64,000 nucleotides of DNA from Patescibacteria group bacterium (GCA_004321885.1 SCQK01000013.1:64001-128000), one strand, 5' to 3'. Counted from the first letter of the stretch, positions 14,870 through 53,333 are shown. Made by a program: numbers and translations. The notes: generated by a model from the sequence alone, not told the origin.

Positions 14870-14879
14870 AACTGTTAAT

Positions 14880-24419: not shown

Positions 24420-27279
<2,860 letters not shown>

Positions 27280-27389
27280 AACTGTTATTTTAACATAAAA
27301 CGGCTGACTTATGCAACTGCCGGCTGACAAAAAAGCCCCCCGACAAGCTCGGGAGGCTTTTGACTAATATTATGGGGTACCCAATAATA

Positions 27390-27827: not shown

Positions 27828-27871
27828 AAATTCACCCCCTCTCTATGCGTAAAGTTTCTTGACATATCGTA

Positions 27872-28306: not shown

Positions 28307-28310
28307 ACCA

Positions 28311-28703
28311 TTATTTTTTAAGTTTCAAAACGCTTCTCACTTTATCCACCACCTCGGACGGCTTAAAATGGATTTTAATCAAGTAGTCAGCCGCGCCCTG
28401 CTCTATACCGCGTTCCACGTCGTCTTTTTGGCCTAAATTCGTGAGTAAAATTACCGGAATATTTTTGACTTCCGGGTCTTTTTTTAGAGCCTCCAAAACC
28501 GCGAAGCCGTCCATTTTTGGAAGCAAAATATCCAGCAAAATAATGTCGGGCTTTTTTTTCTTCGCGTCGGCCAGGCCTTTTTCCCCGTTGTTTGAAACAA
28601 AAATCTTAAAACCCTCCATTTCAAATTTTTTCTGGTAAATGCCCGCTAAAAATACGTCATCCTCCACGAGCAGAACCACTGTCTCCTTTGGATTTTTTAG
28701 CAT
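28311..28703 (-). CDS. Stand-alone response-regulator receiver (CheY-like) domain protein
   Basis: VLLVEDDVFLAGIY...PDIILLDILLPKMDGFAVLEALKKD...IPVILLTNLGQ...ADYLIK; Asp phospho-acceptor pocket. Confidence 0.8.
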   Translation of the reverse strand: MLKNPKETVVLLVEDDVFLAGIYQKKFEMEGFKIFVSNNGEKGLADAKKKKPDIILLDILLPKMDGFAVLEALKKDPEVKNIPVILLTNLGQKDDVERGIEQGAADYLIKIHFKPSEVVDKVRSVLKLKK

Positions 28704-28745
28704 ATTTTTAATTATACGATTTGAAATTTGCGACTAACGCGTTCA

Positions 28746-38778: not shown

Positions 38779-39345
38779 CTAATCCGCCCGCAAAAGCTTT
38801 TTTAGGGCTACCAGCGCGCGCAAATGGCGGCTTTTTACGGTGTTAAGCGGTTCGTCCAAAGTTTCGGCGATTTCTTGAAAAGTAAGATGGTCGTTGTAAT
38901 GAAGAAACAGCACATCGCGGTAAGCCGGGGCCAATGAAGCCACGGCCCGGGCCAATTCCTCCGCTAAATTTTTCCGCTCGTACAGCTCCGCGGGCAATGG
39001 CGACGGATCGGCTAATGTCTCTTCAAACCTCTCCGCTTCTTCAGCGCCCGAGTCCAATTGAGAAAAAACCGGCATCTTTTTTTTGCGTAAAAAATCAACG
39101 GCCGTATTATGGGCGATTCTGAAAATCCACGGTTTGAAACTTTTTGTTTGGTCAAATTTCTTCAAATTGCGCCAACATTTGACAAAAGTTTCTTGGGCCG
39201 CGTCTTCGGCATCGGGCGCGTTGCCAAGCCGCCTGTATAAAAAAGCGTAAATCGGCCCCAGCCAGCGGGAAAACAAAAACTCCAGCGCCTTTTGGTCGCC
39301 GCTTAAATATTCGGCCACGAGTTGTGGGTCGGACAATTCTTGCAC
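38779..39345 (-). CDS. RNA polymerase sigma-70 family (ECF-type) sigma factor
   Basis: Region 2 (AAQETFVKCWRNLKKFDQTKSFKPWIFRIAHNTAVDFLRKKK) and region 4 (HLTFQEIAETLDEPLNTVKSRHLRAL). Start placed at GTG 39345 (…LVQELSDPQLVAEY…). The track ORF extends over the divergent promoter and is too long. Confidence 0.7.
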   Translation of the reverse strand: MQELSDPQLVAEYLSGDQKALEFLFSRWLGPIYAFLYRRLGNAPDAEDAAQETFVKCWRNLKKFDQTKSFKPWIFRIAHNTAVDFLRKKKMPVFSQLDSGAEEAERFEETLADPSPLPAELYERKNLAEELARAVASLAPAYRDVLFLHYNDHLTFQEIAETLDEPLNTVKSRHLRALVALKKLLRAD

Positions 39346-39394
39346 AAGATAAAGTATATCATTATTTTTGAAAATGTGGTATAATATTGTCGCT

Positions 39395-39898
39395 ATGCCA
39401 GACATAAGCGAGGAGAAACCGTTAGCGGCAGTTGAAGAGAAACCAGCCACTGAAAACGAAACCGAAACGCCCCAGGCGGACCCGGCCGTTGTTGAAGTTG
39501 AGCAAGCGCCGGAAACGGACGAAAAGAAGCCTGAAGCAGAGCCGGCAAGAACCGAGGCTGTCTCCAAGCCGCGTTTTTCGCCTTTCAAAAAACCCGCTCT
39601 GCATTTGCCTCAAAGCCGAGACGAGGTCACGATGAAGATTGAAAAAATTTTAGAGGACGGCTTGAATGAACCATACCAACGCCTGTCGCCCATCGCGCGC
39701 AAGGAATTCAAACTCAAAGGCGAGCAGACCGCGGCCAAAATCCGCGAGCTGATGAGAAGCGCGCGCGTGAAAGCGAAAAAAATCTTGCGCCTGATTTTGG
39801 AGTGGCTAAAAATGCTGCCCGGCATAAACAAATTTTTTCTGGAACAGGAAGCGAAGATAAAAACGGATAAGATAATGGCGCTCAAGAGGGTTTCTTAA
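39395..39898 (+). CDS. Hypothetical acidic/Pro-rich protein upstream of the VirB4-like ATPase
   Basis: MPDISEEKPLAAVEEKPATENETETPQADP... then helical C-terminal half. Extended -10 (TGgTATAAT) 9 nt upstream gives a near-leaderless transcript. Confidence 0.45.
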   Translation: MPDISEEKPLAAVEEKPATENETETPQADPAVVEVEQAPETDEKKPEAEPARTEAVSKPRFSPFKKPALHLPQSRDEVTMKIEKILEDGLNEPYQRLSPIARKEFKLKGEQTAAKIRELMRSARVKAKKILRLILEWLKMLPGINKFFLEQEAKIKTDKIMALKRVS

Positions 39899-39900
39899 CT

Positions 39901-42447
39901 ATGTTTGAAGAACTCCGCCCCATTCTTGATTTCCTCTCCCAAAATAAAGCATTCATGCTTGTACTCCCCTACCTCGGCGGAGCGTTCGCGCTTTGGATTT
40001 TTTTGAAAATCCTACGTTCGGCATTTCACGCCGGCGGACAAAACAGCCGCGCCTATCACAAAGCCGTCCTTGTCATCAAAGTGCCCAAAGAAAAAAAACA
40101 CGAGGGCCAGCAAAACACCACGGCCGCCGAAGACAACATCACTCAAATCCGCGAGCAAATCGCCATTGCCGAAACACTCTTCTCGGCCATCGCCGGCCTG
40201 CGCCGCGAAAAAAGTTTTTTCCGCTGGCTAATCGGGCGCAACGACCACCTATCGTTTGAAATCGCGGTCATTGACAGCAAAATAAATTTCTACGTGGCCG
40301 TGCCCGAAAAATTAAAAAACTTCGCCGAACAGCAAATCCACGCCCAATACCCACACGCCGAAATATTGGAAGAGCCCGATTACAACATCTTTAAGCCGCA
40401 AAGCCATATTTTGGGCGCCAGCTTGTGGTTCAAATACCGCTCGGCTTTTCCGTTCAAGACCTACAAAAAAATTGACAGCGACCCCCTGCTTGCTTTGCTG
40501 AATCCGCTAAGTAAAATTTTGGACAACGAGGGCGCGCTTATCCAATACATCGTGCGGCCGGCCTCGCCCAAATGGCGACGCCAGGGCGTGCACATGATTC
40601 GCGACATTAAAGAGGGACAGAAATTTGAATACGTGGCCCGGCGCGGAAAAATTTTACGCTCCCTGATGCGTTGGAAAAAAGCGATTTTCCCCAAACGGCC
40701 AGACCCTTCCAAACAAACCAGCGTAGCCGAACCTTATCACTTGACTCAAATGGAAGAAGAGATGGTGAAGTCAATGGAAGAAAAGCTCTCCCACGGCGGG
40801 CTGGAGATTACGATTCGCGTCGTCAGCTCGGCCGACAATAAAGAAAAGGCCCAGCTCAATTTGGAAAATATCTTGAACGCGTACAGCCAATACAATATAT
40901 ATAGGTATGGCAACTCGTTTGGCGCGGCCGTGCCCCGCCGGCCCGGCGCCCTGATACGCGATTCCATTTTCCGCAACTTTGACGACAAGCGCTATATGGT
41001 GGCGGCCACTGATGAAATGGCCAGCTTTTGGCACTTGCCCAACCCGCACACCGAGACCCCGCACATCAACTGGCTGGGGGCGCGCAAGGCTCCGCCGCCG
41101 GTCAACATGCCGAAAGAAGGCGTAATACTGGGCCGGGCTGTTTACCGAACCGAGGAAACCATTGTGCGCAGCCAGCGAACCGACCGCCGCCGTCATCTGT
41201 ACACCATCGGCAAATCCGGCGTAGGCAAATCCAACCTGATACAAAATATGGCCGTTCAAGACGTGCAAAACGGGGAAGGTATCTGCATCATAGACCCGCA
41301 CGGGGATTTCGTGGAATACGTTTTACAACACGTACCCAAAGAACGCGCCGACGACGTGATATATTTTAATCCGGCAGATATTGAGCGTCCGATCGGTTTG
41401 AACATGCTGGAAGTGCGCACCGAAGAGCAAAAGGATTTCGCCACCCAGGAAATGATTTCTATTTTTTACAAATTAGTCACGGACCCGGCCATGATCGGCC
41501 CCATGTTTGAACATAACATGCGCAATGTGATGCTGACCCTGATGTCGGACCTGGAAAACCCGGGCACCATCGCCGAAATTCCGCGCATGTTCACCGACGA
41601 TGAATTCGTGAAGGGCTGGAAGAAAAAATTGACCGACCCCATGGTCTTGGCTTTTTGGGAAAAAGAAATGGCCAAGACCTCGGACTTTCACAAATCCGAA
41701 ATGCTCGGGTATTTAATTTCCAAAGTCGGCCGCTTTGTGGAAAATGCCATGATACGCAATATCATCGGCCAGTCGCATTCGGGTTTTAATTTCCGCGAAG
41801 TGATGGACAGTAAAAAAATTCTGCTGGTGAATTTATCCAAAGGTTTAGTGGGAGAAATAAACTCAAACCTTTTAGGTCTGATTATCGTATCCAAACTGCA
41901 AATGGCCGCTCTGGAGCGCGCCTCCATGCCCGAAGAACAGCGCCATGATTTTTACTTATATATGGACGAGTTTCAAAATTTTATTACCGATTCCATCGCC
42001 ACGATTTTGTCCGAAGCGCGAAAATACCGCCTGTGCCTGGTGATGGCGCACCAATATTTGAAACAGCTGGAAGACAACAAGGGCAAGACCGCGGTGCGCG
42101 ACGCGGTGCTGGGCAACGCCGGCACCATCGCCGCTTTCCGCATGGGCGTGGAAGATGCCGAGGTGCTGGTGAAAGAATTCACGCCGGTCTTTAACGCGTA
42201 CGACTTGGTAAATATAGAACAATACACGGCCTATGTAAAATTGCTTATTGACAACACGGCCGCGAAACCGTTTAATATGATGACCTACCCCCCCACCCCG
42301 GGCAACAAGGAACTGGCCGCGGCCATCAAAGAGCTGTCGCGCCTGAAATACGGCCGGCCGCGCGAAATAGTGGAAGCCGAGATAATTGAACGGGCACAAC
42401 TGTCCGCGATAGGGGGGAAAGCCGAGTTAAGCGAAGCGTCGCTCTAG
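39901..42447 (+). CDS. VirB4/TrbE/TraC-superfamily (DUF87-type) P-loop ATPase with N-terminal TM and membrane-proximal domain
   Basis: N-terminal TM (FMLVLPYLGGAFALWIFLKIL); Walker A TIGKSGVGKSNLIQNM at about residue 430; Walker B-like FYLYMDEFQNFIT about 250 aa later; 848 aa. The N-terminal 400 aa are homologous to the separate ORF at 48700-50118. Confidence 0.6.
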   Translation: MFEELRPILDFLSQNKAFMLVLPYLGGAFALWIFLKILRSAFHAGGQNSRAYHKAVLVIKVPKEKKHEGQQNTTAAEDNITQIREQIAIAETLFSAIAGLRREKSFFRWLIGRNDHLSFEIAVIDSKINFYVAVPEKLKNFAEQQIHAQYPHAEILEEPDYNIFKPQSHILGASLWFKYRSAFPFKTYKKIDSDPLLALLNPLSKILDNEGALIQYIVRPASPKWRRQGVHMIRDIKEGQKFEYVARRGKILRSLMRWKKAIFPKRPDPSKQTSVAEPYHLTQMEEEMVKSMEEKLSHGGLEITIRVVSSADNKEKAQLNLENILNAYSQYNIYRYGNSFGAAVPRRPGALIRDSIFRNFDDKRYMVAATDEMASFWHLPNPHTETPHINWLGARKAPPPVNMPKEGVILGRAVYRTEETIVRSQRTDRRRHLYTIGKSGVGKSNLIQNMAVQDVQNGEGICIIDPHGDFVEYVLQHVPKERADDVIYFNPADIERPIGLNMLEVRTEEQKDFATQEMISIFYKLVTDPAMIGPMFEHNMRNVMLTLMSDLENPGTIAEIPRMFTDDEFVKGWKKKLTDPMVLAFWEKEMAKTSDFHKSEMLGYLISKVGRFVENAMIRNIIGQSHSGFNFREVMDSKKILLVNLSKGLVGEINSNLLGLIIVSKLQMAALERASMPEEQRHDFYLYMDEFQNFITDSIATILSEARKYRLCLVMAHQYLKQLEDNKGKTAVRDAVLGNAGTIAAFRMGVEDAEVLVKEFTPVFNAYDLVNIEQYTAYVKLLIDNTAAKPFNMMTYPPTPGNKELAAAIKELSRLKYGRPREIVEAEIIERAQLSAIGGKAELSEASL

Positions 42448-42448
42448 T

Positions 42449-42475
42449 GTCATTCCGGCCCCCGAGCCGGAATCC
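42449..42475. repeat. Palindromic element, family A variant (GTCATTCCGGCCCCCGAGCCGGAATCC), intergenic before dnaX
   Basis: Read directly; inner hairpin CCGGC-CCCCGA-GCCGG. Confidence 0.6.
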
Positions 42476-42481
42476 AGTAAC

Positions 42482-43987
42482 ATGTCCACCCTCTACCGCC
42501 TCTACCGCCCGCAGAAGTTCGCCGACGTGACGGGCCAAGAGCACATCATCCAAACCATAACCAACGAGATATGCGCCGCTAAAACGGCGCATGCTTATCT
42601 ATTCTCGGGCCCGCGCGGCACCGGCAAGACCACCCTGGCCCGTCTGCTGGCTAAGGCCGTGAACTGCCAAAACCGCAAAGATGGGGAATCTGAACCGTGC
42701 AATGAGTGCCCATCTTGCGCGGAAATTTCCGCCAGCCGCAATATAGACGTAATGGAAATAGACGCGGCCTCGCATACGGGCGTGGAAAATGTGCGCGAAA
42801 ATATCATAGACAGCGCGCAATTTCAGCCCACCAAATCCAAATACAAAATTTTCATCATAGACGAGGTGCACATGCTTTCCACTCCGGCTTTCAACGCCCT
42901 GCTCAAAACCCTGGAAGAGCCGCCGGCGCACGTGATTTTCGTGCTGGCCACCACCGAACTGCAAAAACTGCCGGCTACCATTGTATCGCGCTGTCAACGT
43001 TTTACCTTCAAAAAAATCGGCTTTGACCAGATGATGAGCAAACTTTTGAAAATCTGCAAAGACCAGGACGTAAAGGTGGACAAAAAAGTGCTGGAGCGGG
43101 TGATAAACAAAAGCGACGGCTGTATGCGCGACGCTGAATCCCTGCTTGGTCAAATTTTAACGTTGAATCAAAAAAATATCGGGCCCGAAGACGCGGAAAT
43201 GATTTTGCCCACGTCCAATGCGCGACAGATTTTGAATTTCGTGGATGCAATTTTGAACCGCGACGTTAAAAGCGCCGTGGCTCTGATAAACGAACTGGTT
43301 TCCGACGGCGTGAATCTGGAGCAATTCGCCTATGACGCGCTGGAAATTTTGCGCCTGCTGATGATTTTGCAATACGACCCAACCAAGGAAATTTTGGATT
43401 ACAGCGACGAAGACGCCAAACTGATTAAAAAAATGACCAAACAGGCGCCGGCCGAGCAGATTATAAAATTAACGGACGCGCTGATGGCGCGCCGAGCGCA
43501 AATTAAATCCGCGCCTATTCCCCAGCTGCCCCTGGAGCTCTTCGCCGTGGAATTCTCAAACTGTCATTCCGGACTTGATACGGAATCCATCGCCGCCAAC
43601 TGTCATTCTGAGGCCCCGCTTAGCGGGGACGGAGAATCCCTCTCGCCATCTATCACGCAAAAAATCAAAACCACTCTGGACGAAATTAAAAACAAGTGGC
43701 ACGATATAACTGCCGGCCTCACCGAACAAAATCACTCACTCGGCTTTATCCTGAAAATGGGCGAACCGGCCAGAATGGAAGGAAATGAACTGTATTTGCG
43801 CGTGCCATTTTCCCTGCACAAAGAAAAAATTGAAGAGCAAAAAACCAAAAAATTGATAGAGGGCGCGATGACAGACGCCTTTGGGGAAAAAATTTGCCTG
43901 ATTTGCGAGGTGACGCAGGCGCAAAATGATGATGGCGAAATCACCCAGCTCGCGAGTGAATTTGGGGGTGAAGTTGTCTCACTCTAA
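42482..43987 (+). CDS. dnaX: DNA polymerase III subunit gamma/tau with two in-frame palindromic inserts near the C-terminus
   Basis: GPRGTGKTTLARLLAKAVNC (Walker A), zinc module CNECPSCAEISASRNIDVMEIDAAS, Walker B KIFIIDEVHMLS, sensor SRCQRF; inserts CHSGLDTESIAANCHSEAPLSGDGESLS from elements at 43563-43588 and 43602-43640. Confidence 0.9.
   Translation: MSTLYRLYRPQKFADVTGQEHIIQTITNEICAAKTAHAYLFSGPRGTGKTTLARLLAKAVNCQNRKDGESEPCNECPSCAEISASRNIDVMEIDAASHTGVENVRENIIDSAQFQPTKSKYKIFIIDEVHMLSTPAFNALLKTLEEPPAHVIFVLATTELQKLPATIVSRCQRFTFKKIGFDQMMSKLLKICKDQDVKVDKKVLERVINKSDGCMRDAESLLGQILTLNQKNIGPEDAEMILPTSNARQILNFVDAILNRDVKSAVALINELVSDGVNLEQFAYDALEILRLLMILQYDPTKEILDYSDEDAKLIKKMTKQAPAEQIIKLTDALMARRAQIKSAPIPQLPLELFAVEFSNCHSGLDTESIAANCHSEAPLSGDGESLSPSITQKIKTTLDEIKNKWHDITAGLTEQNHSLGFILKMGEPARMEGNELYLRVPFSLHKEKIEEQKTKKLIEGAMTDAFGEKICLICEVTQAQNDDGEITQLASEFGGEVVSL
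43563..43640. repeat. Two adjacent family A palindromic elements (GTCATTCCGGACTTGATACGGAATCC and GTCATTCTGAGGCCCCGCTTAGCGGGGACGGAGAATCCC) in frame in dnaX
   Basis: Read directly; the ORF remains open through both. Confidence 0.65.
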
Positions 43988-43997
43988 CCATCCCCAC

Positions 43998-44831
43998 ATG
44001 AAAATAATTATAATATCTTTATTACTAATCCTTGCTCCGGTCGCAGTTTCGTCAAAAACTCTAGTCAACCTTAACGTGCCCTTTACTCCGGAAACACCGG
44101 ACAATGTTTGGACAGCGCCCTGGAAAGACGCCTGCGAAGAGGCCAGTATCGTGATGGTCAGCCAATATTATTTAGGCAAACAAAACGCGCTCATACCAAA
44201 AGCGGCCGCCAAGGCGCTGATGCAAAAATATTTTACGATAGAAAACAAAATTTTTGGCTGGAACGCCAACACCGACGCGGCGCATACGGCTAAACTCATA
44301 AACGAGCACTCAAAAATTTTTGCCGCGGAAATAAAAAACAATCCGACGTTGGCAGAAATTAAAGCCGAGGTACAGGCCGGCCGGCCGGTAATTGCCGCCT
44401 TAAACGCTCTTGCGTTGACAAAAATCAACGACCATTTGCGCTTCCGCCGCAACGGCTCGTATTATCACATGCTGGTCATAGTGGGCTATGACGATGAAAC
44501 GAACGAGTTTATCGTGAACGATAACGGCGATTACAGCGGACTTGACCATCGCTACAGTTATGATATTATAATGGACTCTTTGCGCGATTACAGCTACAAA
44601 ACGCACAAGGCGAACGGCCCGGCGCGGGCGTTATTTACTTATCGCAAAATGCTGGCCAAAACCGCGACCAGCAACCGAATTTATTGGATAGAAAAAAATG
44701 TGAAACAATACGTCACCCACCCGGCCGTATTCAAACAACGCGGTTGGAGATGGGCCAACGTGCAGGTGGTGGAAAAAAGTGTGTTGGATGGGTTGACCAG
44801 CGGCACGCCAATCGCGCCATTGTCATCCTGA
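43998..44831 (+). CDS. Secreted peptidase C39-like (papain-fold cysteine peptidase, BtrH-like) protein; the stop codon is supplied by a family B palindromic element
   Basis: Signal peptide MKIIIISLLLILAPVAVSS; CEEASIVMVSQYY (catalytic Cys) and YYHMLVIVGYDDE...VNDNG (His). The ORF ends ...PLSS* where TGA lies inside gtcatccTGA of the element at 44822-44846. Confidence 0.6.
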   Translation: MKIIIISLLLILAPVAVSSKTLVNLNVPFTPETPDNVWTAPWKDACEEASIVMVSQYYLGKQNALIPKAAAKALMQKYFTIENKIFGWNANTDAAHTAKLINEHSKIFAAEIKNNPTLAEIKAEVQAGRPVIAALNALALTKINDHLRFRRNGSYYHMLVIVGYDDETNEFIVNDNGDYSGLDHRYSYDIIMDSLRDYSYKTHKANGPARALFTYRKMLAKTATSNRIYWIEKNVKQYVTHPAVFKQRGWRWANVQVVEKSVLDGLTSGTPIAPLSS

Positions 44832-44846
44832 ATTTATTTCAGGATC
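44822..44846. repeat. Palindromic element, family B variant (GTCATCCTGAATTTATTTCAGGATC)
   Basis: Read directly; provides the peptidase stop codon. Confidence 0.65.
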
Positions 44847-44860
44847 TCCAACCCGTAACC

Positions 44861-44931
44861 TCCGAGGTCGTCTAATGGCAGGACTCGAGACTCTGAATCT
44901 CGATATCTAGGTTCGAATCCTAGCCTCGGAA
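44861..44931 (+). tRNA. tRNA-Gln (anticodon CTG)
   Basis: TCCGAGG-TC-GTC-TAATGGCAG-GAC-T-CGAGA-CTCTGAA-TCTCG-ATAT-CTAGG-TTCGAAT-CCTAG-CCTCGGA-A; anticodon loop CUCUGAA. Confidence 0.75.
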
Positions 44932-44933
44932 CA

Positions 44934-45644
44934 ATGAAGATCGTCATTGTAATTCCCACATACAACGAAAGGAAGAACATCTCCAAACTAACCGAGAAAA
45001 TTTTTGCTTTGCGAATTGACGGGCTGGAAATGATCGTAGTGGACGACGGCTCGCCCGACGGAACCGGCGACAAGGTAAAAAAATTGGGCGAACGATTTCC
45101 GGTGACCCTGCTGGCGCGCGAAAAAAAACGCGGACTCGGTTCGGCTTACCTCGCCGGATTCAAGAAAGCCCTGGAAATGGGGGCTGATTTTATTTTTGAA
45201 ATGGACGCGGATTTGTCGCACGACCCCGACGACGTGCCAAGATTACTGGAGCCGTGCCTGGACGGCGCCGATTTGGCCATCGGCTCGCGCCGGGTGGCCG
45301 GCGGAAAGATTATCGGATGGGGCTGGGCGCGCAAATTCATGAGCGCCGGAGCCATGCGGCTGTCGCGCCTGATACTTCAATTAAAAAACAAAGACGTTAC
45401 CTCCGGCTTCAGATGTTGGCGCCGCGAAGCGCTTTTAAGAATTGACTTGGACAAAATCAAAAGCAACGGCTACGCTTTTCAGGAAGAAATACTCTGGCGC
45501 GCCCAGCAGGCGGGCCTGAAAATTGCCGAGGTACCGGTAATTTTTGTTGACCGCGAAGAAGGCAAATCCAAACTGGGCTGGAGAGAGGTATTGGAATTTT
45601 TTAAAGTAATGCTGTCATTGCGAGCGAAGCGAAGCAATCCCTAA
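44934..45644 (+). CDS. GT2 family glycosyltransferase (polyprenol-phosphate / dolichyl-phosphate mannosyltransferase-like)
   Basis: IVIPTYNERKNI, MIVVDDGSPDGT, FEMDADLSHDP (DxD). The last 9 codons and the stop come from the family C element at 45614-45692. Confidence 0.8.
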   Translation: MKIVIVIPTYNERKNISKLTEKIFALRIDGLEMIVVDDGSPDGTGDKVKKLGERFPVTLLAREKKRGLGSAYLAGFKKALEMGADFIFEMDADLSHDPDDVPRLLEPCLDGADLAIGSRRVAGGKIIGWGWARKFMSAGAMRLSRLILQLKNKDVTSGFRCWRREALLRIDLDKIKSNGYAFQEEILWRAQQAGLKIAEVPVIFVDREEGKSKLGWREVLEFFKVMLSLRAKRSNP

Positions 45645-45692
45645 CACAAATGATTGGGATTGCTTCGGCGCTATGCGCCGCCTCGCAATGAC
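45614..45692. repeat. Palindromic element, family C (GTCATTGCGAGCGAAGCGAAGCAATCCC…GGGATTGCTTCGGCG…CGCCTCGCAATGAC), between and overlapping the 3' ends of the GT2 and dus genes
   Basis: 79-bp nested palindrome with perfect outer arms GTCATTGCGAG/CTCGCAATGAC. Related copies at 45860-45939, 51238-51287 and 53855-53936. Confidence 0.7.
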
Positions 45693-46648
45693 AATAACAA
45701 CTCGTCAAAGGTTTTCACCCTCATTAATTTCATTTTTAATTCCTTCACTCCGGGAACGCCTTTGAAATAATAGGCGAGGTGTTTGCGAAAAGTTACCATA
45801 CTTCCTTCGCCGTAGCGCTCTAAATGCAGTTGCGCATGGCGGAGAATGACGTTTAAAATGTCATCGCGAGGAGACTGCAGGCCGACGAAGCAATCCCCTG
45901 CTTTATCAGATGGGGTTGCTTCGCTACGCTCGCAATGACAACGGAAAATCCACGGGTTGCCAAGCGCCCCGCGGCCTATCATCACGCCGTCCGCGCCAGT
46001 AATTTCCAAACACCGGCGGATGTCTTCGGACGAATTTATATCACCATTGGCCAGCGCCGGAATCTTTAACAACTTTTTCACGCGGCCAATCATTTCCCAG
46101 TTCGCTTTGCCGCTGTAGCCCTGCGTCTTGGTGCGGCCGTGAATCGTGAGTAAATCAGCGCCGGCCGCTTCCAATTTAGGCGCGAACTCCAAAATTTCTT
46201 CCTCTCTCCCCCACCCCAGCCGCGTCTTCACGGAAATCGGCGCGCCCAAATCCGCTTTTTTTAATTCTGCCACGATTTTTACCGCTCGCTCGTGGTCTTT
46301 CATCAAAGCCGCGCCCGAATTGACTTTGCCGGTTAATTTCGGCACCGGACAGCCCATATTAATGTCAATCCCGTCGGGTTTAAATTTTTCAACTAAAATC
46401 TCCGCGGCCTGACGCACTTGTTTGGGCTCGGCGCCGAACAATTGCAAAACAATCGGCCTTTCAATCGCGTCAAACTCGCACATTTTCAAGGTCTTGGCGT
46501 TGCCGCGGCAAATCGCCTCGGCGCTCACCATTTCCCGAAAAATCACGAAATCCGGGCCTGAAACCTCGCGGCAAACGCGACAAAACGGCCCGTCGGTCAT
46601 ATCGGCCATGGGCGCGAGCGCGACAATAGATCGTTCATCCATCCACAT
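45671..46648 (-). CDS. dus: tRNA-dihydrouridine synthase (Dus family) with an in-frame family C insert
   Basis: LAPMADMTDGPFCRV, QLFGAEPKQ, DINMGCP, TIHGRTK, GVMIGRGALGNPWIF; insert RCHCERSEATPSDKAGDCFVGLQSPRDD from the element at 45860-45939. Start at ATG 46646-46648; the upstream track extension is a high-GC antisense artefact. Confidence 0.8.
   Translation of the reverse strand: MWMDERSIVALAPMADMTDGPFCRVCREVSGPDFVIFREMVSAEAICRGNAKTLKMCEFDAIERPIVLQLFGAEPKQVRQAAEILVEKFKPDGIDINMGCPVPKLTGKVNSGAALMKDHERAVKIVAELKKADLGAPISVKTRLGWGREEEILEFAPKLEAAGADLLTIHGRTKTQGYSGKANWEMIGRVKKLLKIPALANGDINSSEDIRRCLEITGADGVMIGRGALGNPWIFRCHCERSEATPSDKAGDCFVGLQSPRDDILNVILRHAQLHLERYGEGSMVTFRKHLAYYFKGVPGVKELKMKLMRVKTFDELLLSLRGGA
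45860..45939. repeat. Palindromic element, family C, in frame in dus
   Basis: gtcatcgcgaggagactgcaggccgacgaagcaatcccctgctttatcagatggggttgcttcgctacgctcgcaatgac. Confidence 0.7.
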
Positions 46649-46650
46649 AG

Positions 46651-46688
46651 TAAAAATTAAGGGCCTCCGCGAAGACGCGAGGAGGCCC
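46651..46688 (-). terminator. Terminator hairpin GGGCCTCCGCGAAGACGCGAGGAGGCCC plus T-run, downstream of the high-GC islet gene and 3 nt from the dus start codon
   Basis: Perfect 8-bp GC stem. The minus-strand continuation is TTAATTTTTAC. Confidence 0.6.
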
Positions 46689-46709
46689 ATCTTGCGTCGA
46701 CGCGCCTCC

Positions 46710-47312
46710 TCATCGCGCCGACGAGAACTGATAAACCAAACCCGGATTCTGATACTTCCCCGACGGGTCGCGGTAGCCGAGCTCGCTCCGGCCAGCCTTG
46801 GCGAGCGTCTCGGCAAAGAGATCGACGACAACCTCCTCGCCGCCCTCACCGGCAACCACCACCCAGGTGTAGCCAAATCCGAGGCCCGGCAGCATCTTGC
46901 CGCACGCCCTGGCCTGCAACCCCGCCTCCATCAGCAAGACAAACAGATAGGCGTGATAGTACCGGCAGCACGCTATGGCATGGCTGAGCGCGAATGACAG
47001 TTTGGCCTGCTCCGGCGAGGGCGAGAACACGAATCTGTGATACGTCTGGCGCGCATCCTCGTCCAGCTTCGTGTCGTTAGCCAGAACCACCGCGTTATGC
47101 GGCAACGCGGCGAGCACGAGGGTCTTTACCGCCGCAAGTCGCGCGCCGATGCCCTGCGGAGAGCTGGCTTGTTCCCGCGCCAGCCGCAGATGACATCCTA
47201 TGAAGCGGTACTCGTCATCCATCTGCACGTCGAAGATGTTCTCTCCCACCCACTGTCGCCTCGCCTCAACGACCTGGGGCTTCCCGTTGTCTGCCTGCCC
47301 GTTGTCTGACAT
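46710..47312 (-). CDS. Hypothetical 200-aa protein encoded in a high-GC islet
   Basis: RBS aacAGGAGAGAGAGaacATG on the minus strand; GC about 65%; no recognisable family (MSDNGQADNGKPQVVEARRQWVGENIFDVQMDDEYRF...). Confidence 0.5.
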   Translation of the reverse strand: MSDNGQADNGKPQVVEARRQWVGENIFDVQMDDEYRFIGCHLRLAREQASSPQGIGARLAAVKTLVLAALPHNAVVLANDTKLDEDARQTYHRFVFSPSPEQAKLSFALSHAIACCRYYHAYLFVLLMEAGLQARACGKMLPGLGFGYTWVVVAGEGGEEVVVDLFAETLAKAGRSELGYRDPSGKYQNPGLVYQFSSAR

Positions 47313-47454
47313 GTTCTCTCTCTCCTGTTTTTGCTAACAAAATAATGCCCAAAAAATCGTTTTCTGTCAACAATTGCGTAATTTCATTTCTCGGGTTATA
47401 ATATCCGAAAGATTTGACATAAGCAAGCTATCCGCCTTGCGCCATTAAACCAAT

Positions 47455-48030
47455 ATGAAAAAAATCATCGCCGTAGCCGCAGTCATCATAGTCGCCGCCG
47501 GCCTCTGGTACGGTTTTACACTTAACAGTAAGAAGCAAACCAACAGTTCCAACGACTATCAAAAATACGAAAACACCGCTTACGGTTTTAGTTTGGAATA
47601 CCCGAAAACCTGGCACGCGACCGGAGCAAGCGCCACTTCCACGGTTATCAGTTTCAACGACACGGCGCCCAGCGAACCTGTGGAGGGCGCAGAGACGACC
47701 TCATCAGCCGTGATAGACATCATGATAATAGAAAACTACGACAACATCAGCTTGGGGGAATGGACTGACTTGTCTTTGGGGCTGGGGCCGGAACTGAACA
47801 TTTTGAGCGAAGAAACAATTGAAGCAAACAATACAAAATTTTTGGTGAAAACTTTTACGCCCCTGAAATTGCCCGAGGCCGCGCCGACCGCGGCGGCTTT
47901 TACCGCCTTGAATGATGAAAAATATTTCGCGCAAATTAACTACATGGGCGAAGAGCCGAATTTTACCGCCGGCATGAAACATTTCAAGCATTTACTGTCC
48001 AGTTTTCAGTTGACTTCGGCCGCGCCGTAG
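47455..48030 (+). CDS. Secreted hypothetical protein (signal/anchor plus about 165-aa domain)
   Basis: MKKIIAVAAVIIVAAGLWYGF signal-anchor; FSLEYPKTW-type beta-rich domain common in small secreted proteins; no specific family assignable. Confidence 0.45.
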   Translation: MKKIIAVAAVIIVAAGLWYGFTLNSKKQTNSSNDYQKYENTAYGFSLEYPKTWHATGASATSTVISFNDTAPSEPVEGAETTSSAVIDIMIIENYDNISLGEWTDLSLGLGPELNILSEETIEANNTKFLVKTFTPLKLPEAAPTAAAFTALNDEKYFAQINYMGEEPNFTAGMKHFKHLLSSFQLTSAAP

Positions 48031-48061
48031 GATATAATGCAATAACTAAAAAATTTCAGAT

Positions 48062-48697
48062 ATGCGAACTTCCCTTCCATTTACCCATCGCCAGCTCTCC
48101 CCTTCGCCGCCTTCGCGGCATGAGAAAGGGGAGAGGGGGACGACTGCAATATTGCCAGCTATATTGCTCATCGCGTTTGGCATTGCGGCGAGATTTTTGC
48201 CCCATCCGGCGAACTTTACTCCCATCGGCGCCATTGCTATTTTTGGCGGACTGTATCTGCCCAAAAAACTTTCTGTTTGGCTGCCTCTCTCGGCCATGCT
48301 TATCAGCGATATTTTTATCGGCTTTTATTCATTGCCGATTATGGCCAGCGTGTACGTCGGCTTTATGTTCGCCAATCTGCTATCCTTGACAGCGCGGGGC
48401 AAACTCGCATATACAAAAACCGCCTTTGGGCGGTTTGGGACTATTGCCGGCGCCACGGCGCTAAGTTCAGCCATTTTTTACCTCTTGACAAACGCGGCGG
48501 TTTGGGCATTCGGCTCTATGTATCCGCACAATTTCACCGGCCTTTTGGAATCATACTACCTGGCTCTCCCCTTCTTCCGAAACAGCCTGGCGGGCGACGT
48601 TTTCTTCACTTTCGTTTTAGTAGGCGGGATGGAGTTGCTAAAACATACGTTAAGGGATTCCTCCGCTCTCCGCCGGCTGGCGAATCGATCGGAATGA
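48062..48697 (+). CDS. Integral membrane protein (possible ECF-transporter S-component-like); the N-terminal region contains an in-frame family D palindromic element
   Basis: Five or six hydrophobic segments (ILPAILLIAFGIAARF, FTPIGAIAIFGGLYL, ...). The element at 48104-48138 encodes LSPSPPSRHEKGERG. The true start may lie downstream. Confidence 0.4.
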   Translation: MRTSLPFTHRQLSPSPPSRHEKGERGTTAILPAILLIAFGIAARFLPHPANFTPIGAIAIFGGLYLPKKLSVWLPLSAMLISDIFIGFYSLPIMASVYVGFMFANLLSLTARGKLAYTKTAFGRFGTIAGATALSSAIFYLLTNAAVWAFGSMYPHNFTGLLESYYLALPFFRNSLAGDVFFTFVLVGGMELLKHTLRDSSALRRLANRSE

Positions 48698-48699
48698 CA

Positions 48700-50118
48700 T
48701 TATCCATACGGTAACTCCTCTGGCTCTGGCGGTTCTTCTTTTCTCTCTTCTTCCACAGCAGGCCCGACAGGCAAATCCAAATCAATGGGCAAGCCAAACG
48801 GCGGCTCCGAGCGCTTGGTGGCGGATTTCTGCAACAACGGGGTCTTCACACTCGGCAACGGGAAGTGCCACAAAGTGGCCAGCTCTTCTATGTTCAAAAT
48901 ATAGGGCGTGCCGTACACTTTAATCTTGCGCTTCTTAAACGCGTTCACGAATTTGCGTTTTTTCCAAACCACTATAAGCTTCTTAAACGCGTAGTAGGCC
49001 TTGGTCACCACGTAGGGCGTGAGCTGGTTGCGGTTGACCATGCTAAATTGCTTTAGCGAGCCGACATAGCCGTCCAAGCACCGCGAGGGATTGAAAACTT
49101 CCTTGCGCGCCACATACAGGGCGCGTATTTTTGTCTTAAAGCCGACCTTGGCGATTTTGTCTTCCACGGCCTGCACCGTATTTTTCAGGCCCGGCGGCAA
49201 TTCGCTCACTTTGCCGGCCACGACCTCTTCCCTTTTGACTTCTTTTTCCTTTGGTTCAAAGTTCCAATTCCACACGTCCATGAGCATCTCAAACAGCTTG
49301 GCCGGCAAACCCAAAATGCCGCCCAGAATGCCGGCCTTGGCCGGGGCTTTTTTTTGCGCGATGATTTCCTTTACCAGACTGATGCCGGCGGCCTGCCAGG
49401 TATCGGCCACTGGCTCAATCACGATTTGCGTGAAAAAATTCTCGCCCGCCCCGAGTCGCGTGAAATTTTCCAGCACCGCGGCCATAGGGTCGTTGAACAT
49501 GGCGTCTTTGGTCACGCTGTGCTCAAACTCGGGATAGGTGCGGATGGGGTAGGCATTGTGGCCGGCTAAAGTGAATTCCACGCCGAAGACGTCTTCCGCG
49601 TCATTGGGAAATTTTGTCGGAATGACGCCGACATAATCCTCTATTTCCGTGATTTCGGCCGTCGGGTATTGGGCGTAAATGGCCGCTTCCACCACGTCGC
49701 GAAATTCTTGCTCGGTATAAATTAAAAATTGAATATAGCCGGCCATGGAAATAATCTCAAAGCTGAACCACTTTTGTTTTTTGCCCAGCCAAAATTTTTC
49801 GCCGACATTGGGCCCGACCAGCGCGCCCGACAGGTGCGAAAAAAGCTGTTCCACGGCCTTGGGGCTTTGAATCACCTCTTGCGGAATCTCAATGGCCAGC
49901 ACGAGCCATTTCCATTTGCTTGTGTAAAGCCCCTGCCGATACCACAGCCACAGCTCCTGCCCCATGTAGAAAAAAATTAAGAGCAAAATAGCCCAGCCGA
50001 TGATGCCAAACAGGGCCAAAATTATTTTTCCGCTGGACCACGTAAGCAATTGGTCCCAAAACGAAAAATTTAGATTGAATGAGACTCCGCCAAAAGGCGA
50101 CTCCATGCCAGTGGGCAT
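48700..50118 (-). CDS. Membrane protein paralogous to the N-terminal (non-ATPase) domain of the VirB4-like ATPase at 39901-42447
   Basis: AIYAQYPTAEITEIEDY vs QIHAQYPHAEILEEPDY; ATLWHFPLPSVKTPLLQKSATKRSEPPFGLP vs ASFWHLPNPHTETPHINWLGARKAPPPVNMP; no Walker motifs; 472 aa. Confidence 0.55.
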   Translation of the reverse strand: MPTGMESPFGGVSFNLNFSFWDQLLTWSSGKIILALFGIIGWAILLLIFFYMGQELWLWYRQGLYTSKWKWLVLAIEIPQEVIQSPKAVEQLFSHLSGALVGPNVGEKFWLGKKQKWFSFEIISMAGYIQFLIYTEQEFRDVVEAAIYAQYPTAEITEIEDYVGVIPTKFPNDAEDVFGVEFTLAGHNAYPIRTYPEFEHSVTKDAMFNDPMAAVLENFTRLGAGENFFTQIVIEPVADTWQAAGISLVKEIIAQKKAPAKAGILGGILGLPAKLFEMLMDVWNWNFEPKEKEVKREEVVAGKVSELPPGLKNTVQAVEDKIAKVGFKTKIRALYVARKEVFNPSRCLDGYVGSLKQFSMVNRNQLTPYVVTKAYYAFKKLIVVWKKRKFVNAFKKRKIKVYGTPYILNIEELATLWHFPLPSVKTPLLQKSATKRSEPPFGLPIDLDLPVGPAVEEERKEEPPEPEELPYG

Positions 50119-50119
50119 A

Positions 50120-50281
50120 TCATTTATTTATAAACCGGTACACGCCGCCATAGATAATCAAAACCCCTAACACTGTCCACCACCAGCCAAACAAACCCGA
50201 AACATAGCCGGCGTAATAGGCAATAACGCAAATGATGGTGGCAATAGCCGCCACCATGTGACGCACGAGATTATCGGTCAT
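50120..50281 (-). CDS. Small two-TM protein (53 aa) immediately upstream of 48700-50118 (VirB3-like position)
   Basis: MTDNLVRHMVAAIATIICVIAYYAGYVSGLFGWWWTVLGVLIIYGGVYRFINK. The stop is 1 nt from the downstream ATG. Below the ORF-track length cut-off. Confidence 0.35.
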   Translation of the reverse strand: MTDNLVRHMVAAIATIICVIAYYAGYVSGLFGWWWTVLGVLIIYGGVYRFINK

Positions 50282-50306: not shown

Positions 50307-51221
50307 TCACACAACCGCCCGCCTTTGCCATTTTTCCGCCAGCACCAGCAGAGGGGCGGCGATAAAAATGGAAGAATACGCCCCGCTGGCAAAACCAATA
50401 AGCAGGGCCAGGGCGAAGTAATGGATAGAAGCGCCGCCAAAGAGATAAAGGGCGATAAGGGCGAACAAAGTGGTAACGGTCGTGTTGATAGAGCGCATTA
50501 AAGTCTGGTTCAGACCGTTGTTAACCACCTCGGCAAAGTCTTCGTTGCGCCGGCGCAATAAATTTTCCCTGATGCGGTCGTAGACCACGATGGTGTCGTG
50601 CACGGAAAAACCCAGCACGGTTAAGAGAGCCACCACGAAAGCAATATCCACCTCCACGCCCCAGCCATGCCCCAAAACCGAAAAAATACCCATCACCAAA
50701 AAGACGTCATGCACCACCGCGATTATGGCCAACAGGCCGTATTTCCAGCTGGCCACGGGCCGCGACACCTTGCGAAAGGCATAGGCGATATACAATATAA
50801 TGCCCAGGTTGACGAAGATAATGGCCCACACCGCCCGCGTGCGCAATTGCTTGCTTACGGCCGAGCCGATTGTTTCAAAACTAATTTCCTTCACCGTGTT
50901 TTCTTTGGTCTGAAAATTTTGCGTCAAGCGCTTTAGCGCCTCCTGATGTTTTTCTTCGCTCAAAAATTCGGTGCGGATAATAATGCTGTCTTCGCCGACG
51001 TTTTGAACTTGAACATTTTTCAAATCCACTTCGGCAAAAACTTTTTGCACATCAGCGGCCGGCGGCCGGTTGCGGCTAAACGATATTTCCAACAGAGAAC
51101 CGCCGGTAAAGTCAATGCCCGGCTTTAGCCCCCACATAAATATCAAAACAAAGGCGGCCACAGTTACCAGTCCGCTGAAACTAAGCAGTACCTTGGAATA
51201 CTTTATGAATGGTATGGTCAT
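50307..51221 (-). CDS. secF: Protein translocase subunit SecF
   Basis: MTIPFIKYSKVLLSFSGLVTVAAFVLIFMWGLKPGIDFTGGS...; SecD/F family C-terminal 6-TM bundle. Confidence 0.85.
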   Translation of the reverse strand: MTIPFIKYSKVLLSFSGLVTVAAFVLIFMWGLKPGIDFTGGSLLEISFSRNRPPAADVQKVFAEVDLKNVQVQNVGEDSIIIRTEFLSEEKHQEALKRLTQNFQTKENTVKEISFETIGSAVSKQLRTRAVWAIIFVNLGIILYIAYAFRKVSRPVASWKYGLLAIIAVVHDVFLVMGIFSVLGHGWGVEVDIAFVVALLTVLGFSVHDTIVVYDRIRENLLRRRNEDFAEVVNNGLNQTLMRSINTTVTTLFALIALYLFGGASIHYFALALLIGFASGAYSSIFIAAPLLVLAEKWQRRAVV

Positions 51222-51230: not shown

Positions 51231-53333
51231 TTATGTATGGGATTGCTTCCCGCCAGAGGCGGGCAGGCGCTCTTCGCTCGCAATGACATTTTTTTTATGC
51301 CCCAAAAACATCCAATTGCCATACTCATTGAACCAGCGGAAAACAATGCGGATATTGATGCGGGTAACGGTAATGGCCGTAAACATGGAGACCAACGTGC
51401 CGATGGCCAACGTGACGGCAAAGCCCTGCACAAACCCGGTGCCAAACCATATAAGGAATCCGCAACTGATAAGGGTGGTGATATTGCTGTCGCGAATGGA
51501 CGGCCAGGCGCGCGCGAACGACTCCTCGGCCGCCGACAGCAAACTGCGGCCATTGCGTAATTCTTCTTTCATGCGCTCAAACACCAGCACATTGGCGTCT
51601 ACGGCCATACCGATAGACAAAATAAAGCCGGCAATGCCCGACAAGGTTAAAGTTACTCCGATAATCTTAAAGATGGCCAAACTTAAAAGGGCGTAGACGA
51701 GCAGAGAAACATTGGCCAACAAGCCGGGAAAGCGATAATAGCCAATCATGAAAAGCAAAACTAAAATCAAACCAACAATGCCGGCGAAAAAACTTTTACG
51801 CAGATACTCGGAACCCAAAGTGGCGTCCACTTTCTGCTGGCTGATGAGGTCTACGGCCACGGGCAAAGCGCCGGCGTTGAGGCGCTGGGACAAAAGCCGC
51901 GCTTCGCCGAGCGTGAAACTGCCCGAGATGACGGCCGAGCCGCTGGTGATGGCTTCGTTCACGCGCGGAATGCTAATGGGCTCACCGTCCAAAAATATGG
52001 CCACGTTCTTGCCCACATTGCGCGTGGTGATATCGCCGAACAATTTTGTGCCTTCTTCGTTGAATTGCAGATTGACCTGCACTTGTCCGGACTGATTATC
52101 CTGGGTTACCTCGGCGCGCTTGAGCTGCTTGCCCGACAAGCCCGAGCTTTTCCATTCCTCGGCCGGCGGCACGACATCGGAAGCCTGTTTAGTCTTCACG
52201 TACACGCGGGCCACCTCATATTCCCTGGACGGCTTTTCATCTTTTTTGTAAATAATGTGAAAACCGAATTTTGTTTCCACCGCATTGGACACAGCGCCCT
52301 TGGGCATCGCGCCCGCCGCCTCTTCAAACTCCGGCACCATTTGGCCCTTCTTAAACCAGCCCAGCTCTTCGCCGCGCACTTCCAATTTTTTATCCGGAGA
52401 ATATTGCTGTACCAACTGGGCAAAATTGGCGGGCGACGCCTGGGCTTTTATTTCACCGGCTCTTTGGCGGGCCTGGTCTTTGTTCAATTTGCTTTCACAC
52501 CCTTCGGCGCCGGCATAACAAACCAACAAGTGCGACGCGTTTATCATTTTTTCGCCGTCGCGGCCGGAGAGCCGTTTTACCACGTTCAAGCCGTCAAAAC
52601 TTTTCACCAGGGTTTTGCCCGCCTGGCCGTCTTTGGCTTTCTCGGCCCAAGCAAAAATTTCCGGATAAATTTCTTTGGTAATAAATCCCAGATTGCCGCC
52701 CTTGTCTTTGCTGGCCTGGTCTTCGGAATATTGGGCCGCGATTTTGCCGAAATCGGCCCCGGGTTTTAGGGCCGCGGTTAGAGCTGTTTTGGCTTTTTTA
52801 TCGGCCGCGCTGTTAAAAACGTCCAGGTCTTTTTTTTCTTGGGGTGTCAAATCGCGGGCCGGGTCGTGATTTTCTTCCTTAAATTCCAGTATCGGAGTTT
52901 CGCCAATCATTTTGATGGCCTGATTGACATCGGTAACGCCGGGCAATTCCACAATCACGCGATAATCGCCGCCGACCTTGGTGGTTTGCACCAATGGCTC
53001 GGCCACGCCCAGGCCCCCGCGCACGCGCCGCTCTATCACGTCGCGCACGCCTTCCACGGCGTCGCCGCGGTCGCCTTCGGGAATGGTTTCTGTTTTGGCC
53101 TGATAAACCAAATGCGCGCCGCCCTGCAAATCCAGGCCCAGATTAAAGCCCTTATCCGGCAAGCGGGGCAAACCGATGTTGGCCGCGTTGTTGAGCCAGT
53201 CTATGCCGCGGTTGGCGAACGCCGGCAAAACAATAAGCAGGGTGGCAATGGCCAAAGCGACCACGCCGGCCGCGTGCCATTTTAATTTTTTCGCCGACGA
53301 AACCTTGTTGGAAATTTTTACTGCCATAAACAC
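51231..53333 (-). CDS. secD: Protein translocase subunit SecD with an inserted parvulin-type (PpiC-like) peptidyl-prolyl isomerase domain; C-terminal tail and stop supplied by a family C element
   Basis: SecD N-terminus and DLQGGAHLVYQ, C-terminal TM bundle. Middle segment ...INASHLLVCYAGAEG...GEELGWFKKGQMVPEFEEAAGAMPKGAVSNAVETKFGFHIIYK resembles the parvulin rotamase fold. Last residues …ASEERLPASGGKQSHT* are read from 51238-51287. Confidence 0.8.
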   Translation of the reverse strand: MFMAVKISNKVSSAKKLKWHAAGVVALAIATLLIVLPAFANRGIDWLNNAANIGLPRLPDKGFNLGLDLQGGAHLVYQAKTETIPEGDRGDAVEGVRDVIERRVRGGLGVAEPLVQTTKVGGDYRVIVELPGVTDVNQAIKMIGETPILEFKEENHDPARDLTPQEKKDLDVFNSAADKKAKTALTAALKPGADFGKIAAQYSEDQASKDKGGNLGFITKEIYPEIFAWAEKAKDGQAGKTLVKSFDGLNVVKRLSGRDGEKMINASHLLVCYAGAEGCESKLNKDQARQRAGEIKAQASPANFAQLVQQYSPDKKLEVRGEELGWFKKGQMVPEFEEAAGAMPKGAVSNAVETKFGFHIIYKKDEKPSREYEVARVYVKTKQASDVVPPAEEWKSSGLSGKQLKRAEVTQDNQSGQVQVNLQFNEEGTKLFGDITTRNVGKNVAIFLDGEPISIPRVNEAITSGSAVISGSFTLGEARLLSQRLNAGALPVAVDLISQQKVDATLGSEYLRKSFFAGIVGLILVLLFMIGYYRFPGLLANVSLLVYALLSLAIFKIIGVTLTLSGIAGFILSIGMAVDANVLVFERMKEELRNGRSLLSAAEESFARAWPSIRDSNITTLISCGFLIWFGTGFVQGFAVTLAIGTLVSMFTAITVTRINIRIVFRWFNEYGNWMFLGHKKNVIASEERLPASGGKQSHT
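51238..51287. repeat. Palindromic element, family C (half-copy: GGGATTGCTTCCCGCCAGAGGCGGGCAGGCGCTCTTCGCTCGCAATGAC)
   Basis: Shares GATTGCTTCG and CGCTCGCAATGAC with the 45614 and 53855 copies. Confidence 0.6.

Follow-up and report, generated by a model that had tools for sequence, protein, structure and literature searches.

A membrane-anchored coupling-type ATPase and a stand-alone paralog of its N-terminal domain in a Patescibacteria genome

The ATPases of type IV secretion systems (T4SSs) that most resemble the proteins described here belong to two families, the type IV coupling proteins (T4CPs) and VirB4. TrwB, a well-known coupling protein, is a hexameric, membrane-anchored, DNA-dependent ATPase, and two transmembrane (TM) helices are usual in canonical T4CPs. 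We analyzed a stretch of 64,000 nucleotides from a Patescibacteria group bacterium (GCA_004321885.1, SCQK01000013.1:64001-128000), hereafter the window, which encodes a membrane-anchored ATPase, open reading frame (ORF) A, and a second protein, ORF B, which corresponds to the N-terminal part of A.

The membrane-embedded N-terminal domains of VirB4 hold its protomers together as dimers and also bind VirB3 and VirB8 (PMC12857230). In Gram-positive T4SSs of the pGO1 type, the stand-alone protein TrsD shows remote similarity to the N-terminus of VirB4, and no T4SS component is more abundant in Patescibacteria than TrsD (PMC12102498). According to the same 2025 survey, T4SSs are widespread in Patescibacteria and each genome holds about two coupling-protein homologs, whose genes are often distant from virB4 and almost never beside it: 148 of 5,713 homologs lie near virB4, and relaxases are rare. 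On a possible exaptation of these homologs, the survey states only that it "cannot be ruled out"; neither an N-terminal domain nor a split form is described for them (PMC12102498).

Our comparisons suggest that A and B belong to two ancient paralogous versions of one membrane-anchored, hexameric motor of T4CP lineage, built on a cytoplasmic domain of VirB4 N-terminal fold (DUF8128), and that DNA is the likeliest polymer it handles. We consider this reading probable, with some reservation. The three reading frames at its center are as follows.

39901-42447, plus strand: ORF A, 848 amino acids
48700-50118, minus strand: ORF B, 472 amino acids, a stand-alone DUF8128 protein without an ATPase domain
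50120-50281, minus strand: mini-ORF, 53 amino acids with two TM helices, as seen from its translation, junction sequence and orthologs

Family of the ATPase domain of ORF A

A single TM helix is predicted at about residues 17-38 of A, followed by the DUF8128 domain (about residues 55-404, some 350 residues) and by an ATPase domain of coupling-protein type (405-848). Walker A (GKSGVGKS, 437-444) and Walker B (YLYMDE, 685-690) are 248 residues apart, and the stretch that separates them holds an all-helical insert (about residues 500-636). This layout agrees with an earlier note on the window, which had described a TM helix, an N-terminal domain of about 400 residues and Walker motifs about 250 residues apart. 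The charges flanking the helix (-1 on the N-terminal side, +3 on the C-terminal side) suggest, by the positive-inside bias, that the N-terminus is outside and the C-terminus inside.

The earlier note had also placed the ATPase in the VirB4 family, and here the profile searches point elsewhere. A scores above the Pfam gathering thresholds of TrwB_AAD_bind (46.7 bits, cut-off 20.5), T4SS-DNA_transf (33.8, cut-off 20.1), TraG-D_C (28.5, cut-off 22) and DUF87 (31.8 bits), and has no match at E < 0.1 to the VirB4 models CagE_TrbE_VirB (PF03135) and AAA_10 (PF12846). In NCBIfam it scores highest with TraD and with the VirD4-like CD1115 family, in both cases below the equivalog cut-offs (46 bits versus 366 for SXT_TraD and 36 versus 250 for CD1115). 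The cut-offs of the VirB4 models are likewise not reached (12.8 bits versus 567 for the TraC-F-type model and 18.7 versus 590 for VirB4_plasma), and the scores of A with the NCBIfam VirB4/TraC models are confined to the P-loop. Among PDB sequences, TrwB was found in a single-sequence search with A, and a profile of 25 ATPase domains returned TrwB (5.5e-8) and DotL (2.1e-5), then HerA-like helicases, and never matched VirB4. Models specific to HerA and FtsK, including their accessory domains (HAS barrel; FtsK alpha, beta and gamma), did not place A in either of these families, which the earlier note had named as the competing assignment. A defense-system reading was rejected because a defense context is absent: PADLOC gave a generic mad8 match and weak HerA matches for the ATPase, and none for B or the small ORFs. 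These profile matches support a place for A within the VirB4/VirD4 branch of DUF87-type ATPases and assign its ATPase domain to the coupling protein class (TrwB/VirD4/TraD), not to VirB4.

A protein identical to A over its whole length is present at NCBI, and the best homologs come from Magasanikbacteria, the best 120 listed sharing 72-80% identity with A; the window is a stretch of chromosome from a member of Candidatus Magasanikbacteria. The ATPase domain is 82-87% identical in comparisons where SecA is 68-71%, SecD 61-64% and DnaX 47-53% identical; A is thus more conserved than SecA. Relatives also occur outside the candidate phyla radiation (CPR). The tblastn search with A matched 459 plasmid records, mostly from Bacillus and Streptomyces, but also from Clostridium, Sulfolobus and haloarchaea. 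The relaxase-adjacent plasmid homologs and a phage homolog, both described below, cover about 80-85% of A, including most of its N-terminal domain (E from 2e-22 to 1e-54). A further tblastn match, gp156 of Bacillus phage G, spans 85% of A (4e-42). In PHROG, A matches phrog_5156 over residues 101-832 (4e-83), and B matches the N-terminal part of the same family.

Two plasmids illustrate the genetic context of these relatives. On the Bacillus subtilis plasmid NRS6116_2, a replication-relaxation (relaxase) gene comes after the gene for a homolog of 913 amino acids, and a few genes further on are those for TcpD, TcpE and a separate VirB4 of 854 amino acids (AAA_10, 285 bits). On an Embleya plasmid the order is PrgI, XF1762, VirB4 (643 amino acids), the A homolog (812 amino acids), relaxase and NlpC/P60. 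In conjugative elements, the protein with the architecture of A is therefore a second, relaxase-adjacent ATPase that stands alongside a true VirB4, and this second ATPase is the coupling protein. The N-terminal domain is shared as well: the B profile aligns by hhalign with the N-terminal part of the Bacillus plasmid protein (96.8% probability, E 2.8e-10, across the ILNIEEL..FP motif) and with phage G gp156 (97.9%). DUF8128 is thus not specific to CPR, as plasmids of Gram-positive bacteria and archaea and a jumbo phage also encode it. In phage G itself (L085, NC_023719.1, 4243-8385), gp155 is VirB4-like (AAA_10/P-loop_TraG) and gp156, encoded immediately after it, combines a DUF8128-like part with a coupling-type ATPase, forming a conjugation-type ATPase pair in a jumbo virus. 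Shorter matches to A were seen in SP-10-like and other Bacillus phages.

Membership in the T4CP family raises the question of whether A simply is the coupling protein of a Patescibacteria T4SS encoded elsewhere, which would recruit DNA or protein for delivery to a host, with B as an accessory N-domain subunit. The plasmid homologs, which lie beside relaxase, VirB4, PrgI and TcpD/TcpE genes, fit this explanation, as does the reported distance of coupling-protein genes from virB4 in a group where T4SSs are widespread. The small fraction of T4CP homologs near virB4 and the rarity of relaxases argue against it, and so does Southlakia epibionticum, where the T4CP homolog is dispensable and the T4SS genes are essential (PMC12102498). 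In addition, the genes examined in the window include neither a relaxase nor a T4SS channel gene, and conservation above that of SecA would be unusual for a coupling protein. On balance we regard this explanation as doubtful.

DUF8128 and the split form of the motor

B has one TM helix at about residues 32-54 and lacks a P-loop; its C-terminal part carries the conserved motif EELATLWHFPLPSVKTP...EPP...LP. BLASTP aligns residues 19-404 of A with residues 46-444 of B (E=5e-22, 22% identity), and the alignment spans the motif pairs IHAQYPHAEILEEPDY/IYAQYPTAEITEIEDY and WHLPNP/WHFPLP, to which the earlier note had pointed in proposing that B is a paralog of the N-terminal domain alone. Both proteins can be assigned to Pfam PF26449 (DUF8128) through precomputed annotation, carried in one case by the NCBI protein identical to A and in the other by all 120 listed homologs of B. 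The shared annotation independently backs the homology of the two membrane-anchored N-terminal modules. DUF8128 is therefore an already catalogued domain, and A is already annotated as coupling-type; in the searchable literature we found no paper on DUF8128/PF26449. Stand-alone B proteins form 1841 clusters at 50% identity, and the residues invariant across this family are all present in B, which is, judging by its sequence, under purifying selection.

The fold of DUF8128 was examined with AlphaFold. A model of B built from 42 sequences reached a mean predicted local distance difference test score (pLDDT) of 78.7 and a predicted template modeling score (pTM) of 0.71. In Foldseek, its first nine matches were chains of TrwK, the VirB4 of R388, with probabilities of 0.92-1.0, and TrwK was the sole P-loop ATPase among its structural matches. 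The VirB4 C-terminal-domain structure 4ag5 was matched only with the full-length model of A. The similarity therefore resides in the N-terminal domain of TrwK, since 4ag5 requires full-length A and B matches no other P-loop ATPase. DUF8128 is accordingly predicted to fold as the N-terminal domain of VirB4 does, a structural similarity rather than proven homology. Sequence searches do not recover the link: phmmer and profile searches of DUF8128 against the PDB found nothing, and hhalign with a bona fide plasmid VirB4 gave a probability of 1.3%. The connection to VirB4 is thus purely structural. The VirB4-likeness put forward in the earlier note survives in the predicted fold of the N-terminal domain and is lost in the ATPase domain, which is of coupling type.

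We scanned with an alignment of B, taking one genome per species, and obtained 80 loci from related CPR lineages (Magasanikbacteria, Uhrbacteria, Falkowbacteria, Kerfeldbacteria, Buchananbacteria and other Patescibacteria). Many record titles of these CPR-type loci (L006-L083) read 'uncultured Gammaproteobacteria bacterium', and single ones Candidatus Binatia or Acutalibacteraceae; they look like placeholder or mis-assigned taxonomy. At 72 loci, at least 1.5 kb of sequence was available 3' of the B ortholog, and 39 of these have a separate ATPase gene for 516-773 amino acids next in line on the same strand, mostly after a gap of less than 15 nucleotides or with an overlap. This ATPase contains TrwB_AAD_bind, DUF87 and TraG-D_C and ends in a treble-clef zinc finger (zf_Tbcl_2). 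Its identity between CPR lineages is 60-77%, and its ATPase region shares 42-49% identity with that of A. Such a gene is seen, for example, at L040 9521-11572 (among loci L023-L084), under the JGI name 'CxxC-x17-CxxC domain-containing protein'. The N-terminus of the split ATPase aligns with the region of A that follows DUF8128, so that A corresponds end to end to a B-like protein plus a split ATPase. In line with this, the split ATPase matches the C-terminal part of phrog_5156. In-frame read-through from B into the ATPase gene was considered and rejected, as about one third of the pairs are in frame, which is the chance level.

B shares 37-44% identity with the orthologs that are paired with an ATPase and 22% with the N-terminal part of A. 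It is therefore an ortholog of the split N-subunit and not a recent copy of the N-terminus of A, and what the earlier note took for a 'duplicated membrane module' is more accurately called the N-subunit of a split paralog, whose orthologs usually precede an ATPase gene of their own. Fused and split systems coexist, given that L044 (Uhrbacteria), L061 and L079 carry a fused A-type gene, followed by dnaX, at 6-8 kb upstream of a split pair. Downstream of the split pairs, a search for further T4SS genes returned only housekeeping and nucleotide-salvage genes. The latter include nucleoside/AMP phosphorylase (8 loci), ribose-1,5-bisphosphate isomerase (5 loci) and thymidine kinase (3 loci).

In the clade to which the window belongs (about 33 loci), the ATPase gene is absent 3' of B, where either dus or a gene for DUF6580 takes its place; in the window a convergent DUF6580 gene starts 2 nucleotides after B. 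A tblastn search of the window found no second ATPase copy and no pseudogene remnant downstream of B. A search with a partner ATPase from Magasanikbacteria gave more than 8000 matches, and none of the best 120 listed was on a contig with such an orphan B.

Neighboring genes and the mini-ORF

Both ORFs lie among conserved neighbors, and a group of type IV pilus genes is found in the same window.

26482-27279, strand opposite to A: prepilin peptidase
27390-27827 and 27872-28306, strand opposite to A: two pilins
28746-29906, strand opposite to A: PilM
39368-39898, plus strand: conserved ORF of at most 176 amino acids, start uncertain, ending 2 nucleotides before the ATG of A
42482-43987, plus strand: dnaX (DNA polymerase III tau/gamma; Pfam), 34 nucleotides downstream of A
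43926-44831, plus strand: Peptidase_C39_2-like protein with a signal-anchor-like N-terminus, overlapping the end of dnaX by 62 nucleotides
50307-51221, minus strand: secF (Pfam), directly upstream of the mini-ORF
51231-53333, minus strand: secD (Pfam), with an inserted parvulin peptidyl-prolyl isomerase domain

The stop codon of the mini-ORF lies 1 nucleotide before the ATG of B, so that B, and not A, has a two-TM reading frame in the position that VirB3 takes. A profile of 27 orthologs found the mini-ORF at 36 of 78 loci, with constant length and position (consensus MSDxxxRHxxAxxxTxxxxxxxxxGYxSGxxGWWWTxxxxxIxYxxI). It is a real gene, as yet uncalled in the JGI record examined, and it is limited to a Magasanikbacteria-related clade, in contrast to the much wider distribution of the DUF8128 gene. 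Mini-ORF and split ATPase occur together at 8 of the 36 loci. At 35 more distant loci without a mini-ORF, a protein of 367-411 amino acids with an N-terminal Sigma70_r4 and a HARE-HTH domain is encoded directly upstream of the B ortholog (for example L076 6695-7798, among loci L043-L084), in a conserved three-gene arrangement.

The earlier note had called the mini-ORF VirB3-like and had joined it with A, B and the pilus genes, which amounts to reading A as a VirB4-type assembly ATPase, the mini-ORF as its VirB3 and the whole as one pilus or T4SS-like apparatus together with the pilins, prepilin peptidase and PilM. The directly adjacent, conserved two-TM frame, the VirB4-type fold predicted for the N-terminal domain and the presence of pilus genes in the window are compatible with such an apparatus, and a few orthologs of the mini-ORF give sub-threshold matches to TrbC/VirB2 (3 of 27, best E 0.038) or PrgI (1 of 27, E 0.095). 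Scattered sub-threshold matches of this kind are typical of two-TM hairpins. VirB3 was matched by none of the 27 orthologs, a PDB profile search with the mini-ORF did not find TrwM/VirB3, and the only Pfam match of the mini-ORF in the window is YgaP-like_TM, below threshold (E 0.009). Beyond the positional analogy, which about half of the B loci lack, the label VirB3-like is not justified. The apparatus is further at odds with the match of A to T4CP rather than VirB4 models and with the coexistence of its homologs with true VirB4s. Type IV pili, moreover, use PilB/PilT-type ATPases. The pilus cluster (26482-29906), which also holds a response regulator, is 10-13 kb from A and separated from it by unrelated genes, namely cysS, a MacAB-type ABC exporter with a HlyD-like protein, and an extracytoplasmic function (ECF) sigma/anti-sigma region. 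The pilus genes reported in the earlier note are therefore there, but unlinked to A and B, whose conserved neighbors are dnaX and secDF, respectively. Taken together, the sequence comparisons largely refute a VirB4/pilus apparatus, which we consider highly improbable.

The genes secD, secF, mini-ORF and B probably form one operon. A secF gene lies on the same strand less than 600 nucleotides upstream of the B ortholog at 34 of 67 loci; allowing a distance of 2.5 kb raises the count to 47 of 67. The parvulin-type domain of SecD (Rotamase_3, 2e-32, about residues 253-364) is inserted between SecD_1st and the P1 head; the same architecture, a foldase fused into the export machinery, is also found in L001 and L003. 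The co-oriented and nearly contiguous arrangement would be expected if A and B acted in protein export or membrane-protein biogenesis with SecDF and SecA, as a motor that handles polypeptides, and some T4CPs do recruit protein substrates. A different gene, the one for the Sigma70_r4/HARE-HTH protein, takes the place directly upstream of B at 35 loci, however, and the loci are all drawn from related CPR lineages, among which the synteny may be inherited. The zinc finger of the split ATPase and the nucleotide-salvage genes often found downstream of it also speak against a polypeptide substrate. A role in protein export is, in our view, improbable.

On the side of A, the order A-dnaX is kept in L001, L005, L012, L044 and L061, and the Peptidase_C39_2-like gene keeps its position in L001-L004. 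The conserved ORF before A has an acidic, low-complexity and variable N-terminal part and a conserved C-terminal part of about 95 amino acids. By tblastn it has relatives with 56-61% identity in L001, L003 and L012, a gene for 165 amino acids occupies the same site in L001-L004 (L001 9501-9998), and no family match was found in the profile libraries searched. Since its longest reading overlaps a divergent ECF sigma-factor ORF (38779-39588), the starts of both are uncertain.

Farther away, the window holds a cluster of fragments of phosphoenolpyruvate (PEP)-utilizing enzymes (7942-17836 and 21413-24379). It comprises a stand-alone PPDK_N protein (7942-9000), four tandem paralogs of 407-502 amino acids (11320-12828, 12859-14082, 14880-16361 and 16358-17836), whose sole Pfam match is the C-terminal PEP-utilizers mobile domain, and a full-length PPDK/PEP-synthase-like gene (21413-24379). 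A DUF3800 gene (14240-14869) interrupts the tandem paralogs and a Fic gene (17839-18882) follows them.

A proposed motor and its comparison with known systems

A and B most likely serve a membrane-anchored DNA translocase. A is its fused version, uniting anchor, DUF8128 and ATPase, and B the DUF8128 subunit of a split version whose partner, in most related CPR lineages, is the separate, zinc-finger-ended coupling-type ATPase. By analogy with coupling proteins and VirB4, DUF8128 may dock the motor at the membrane and organize the oligomer, and the ATPase ring may pump a polymer at the cytoplasmic membrane. The polymer would most likely be DNA, in uptake, export or segregation, rather than a pilus substrate; DNA is favored on four grounds: relaxases adjoin the genes of the plasmid homologs, dnaX is linked to A, the tail of the split ATPase is a zinc finger, and nucleotide-salvage genes come after the split pair in a sizeable minority of loci. 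As the partner ATPase gene is absent at this locus, B probably either joins the assembly of A through contacts between N-terminal domains, as VirB4 protomers pair, or serves an ATPase encoded elsewhere.

Several points weigh against this proposal. The fold assignment comes from AlphaFold models, and the ATPase part of the model of A is poor (mean pLDDT 61); at the sequence level, similarity of DUF8128 to bona fide VirB4 N-terminal domains is absent in phmmer, profile and hhalign comparisons alike. The secDF and dnaX neighbors could be synteny inherited within one CPR class, not functional linkage, and both the substrate and the partner of the motor are ones that we infer. Finally, the coupling-protein homolog of S. 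epibionticum is not essential for epibiotic growth (PMC12102498), which is an uneasy fit with a core housekeeping role. VirD4, VirB4 and FtsK are unmentioned in the main text of the Southlakia paper.

More tentatively, the pairs of DUF8128 and coupling-type ATPase, either fused as in A or split as in B and its partner, may represent a conjugation motor that was exapted and is now a core, T4SS-independent housekeeping translocase of CPR, possibly for DNA import or segregation in organisms that rely on nucleotide scavenging. The subfamily might also keep the ancestral two-domain architecture that gave rise to both VirB4 and canonical coupling proteins; we hold this as a possibility rather than an expectation. 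Judged against the searchable literature, the predicted VirB4 N-terminal fold of DUF8128, the fused and split pair, the orphan B of one clade, the level of conservation and the housekeeping context are new. They give the orphan coupling-protein homologs of Patescibacteria an anatomy, with fused and split forms both built on DUF8128, and the predicted fold offers a structural link between the two families of T4SS ATPases. Concrete experiments become possible in the genetically tractable Saccharibacteria.

Compared with the known systems, A resembles the T4CPs (TrwB of R388, VirD4, TraD and DotL) in its N-terminal anchor, in the spacing of about 250 residues between its Walker motifs and the all-helical insert found there, in passing the Pfam gathering scores, in having TrwB and DotL as top PDB sequence matches, and in the relaxases beside its plasmid homologs. 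Unlike TrwB, it has one TM helix and about 350 residues of DUF8128 before the ATPase; unlike T4CPs, it is chromosomal, linked to dnaX and more conserved than SecA, without relaxase or T4SS channel genes nearby; and unlike the named TraD families, it scores far below the NCBIfam equivalog cut-offs. With VirB4 (TrwK of R388; PDB 7o42 and 8rtd), A shares the two-domain plan and the overall size of about 800-850 amino acids: the N-terminal domain is associated with the membrane, and the ATPase after it belongs to the same superfamily. It differs in an ATPase that misses the VirB4 models, in a DUF8128 without detectable sequence similarity and in the lack of VirB3, VirB6 and VirB8 neighbors, none of which were found in the window.

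The pair of TrsD and TrsE resembles B and its downstream ATPase in that an N-domain-only protein is encoded beside a cognate ATPase, a likeness of gene logic in which TrsD is taken from its description. Unlike TrsD, which goes with a VirB4, B goes with a coupling-type ATPase, and in the window it stands without an adjacent one. The same architecture, over about 80-85% of A, is that of the relaxase-adjacent plasmid ATPases annotated as 'DUF87 domain-containing' and of phage G gp156, which, like A, join a DUF8128-like N-terminal part to a coupling-type ATPase. These plasmid and phage proteins are encoded on mobile elements, together with a relaxase and a separate VirB4, whereas the CPR genes are single-copy and chromosomal, lie in a housekeeping context and occur also in split form.

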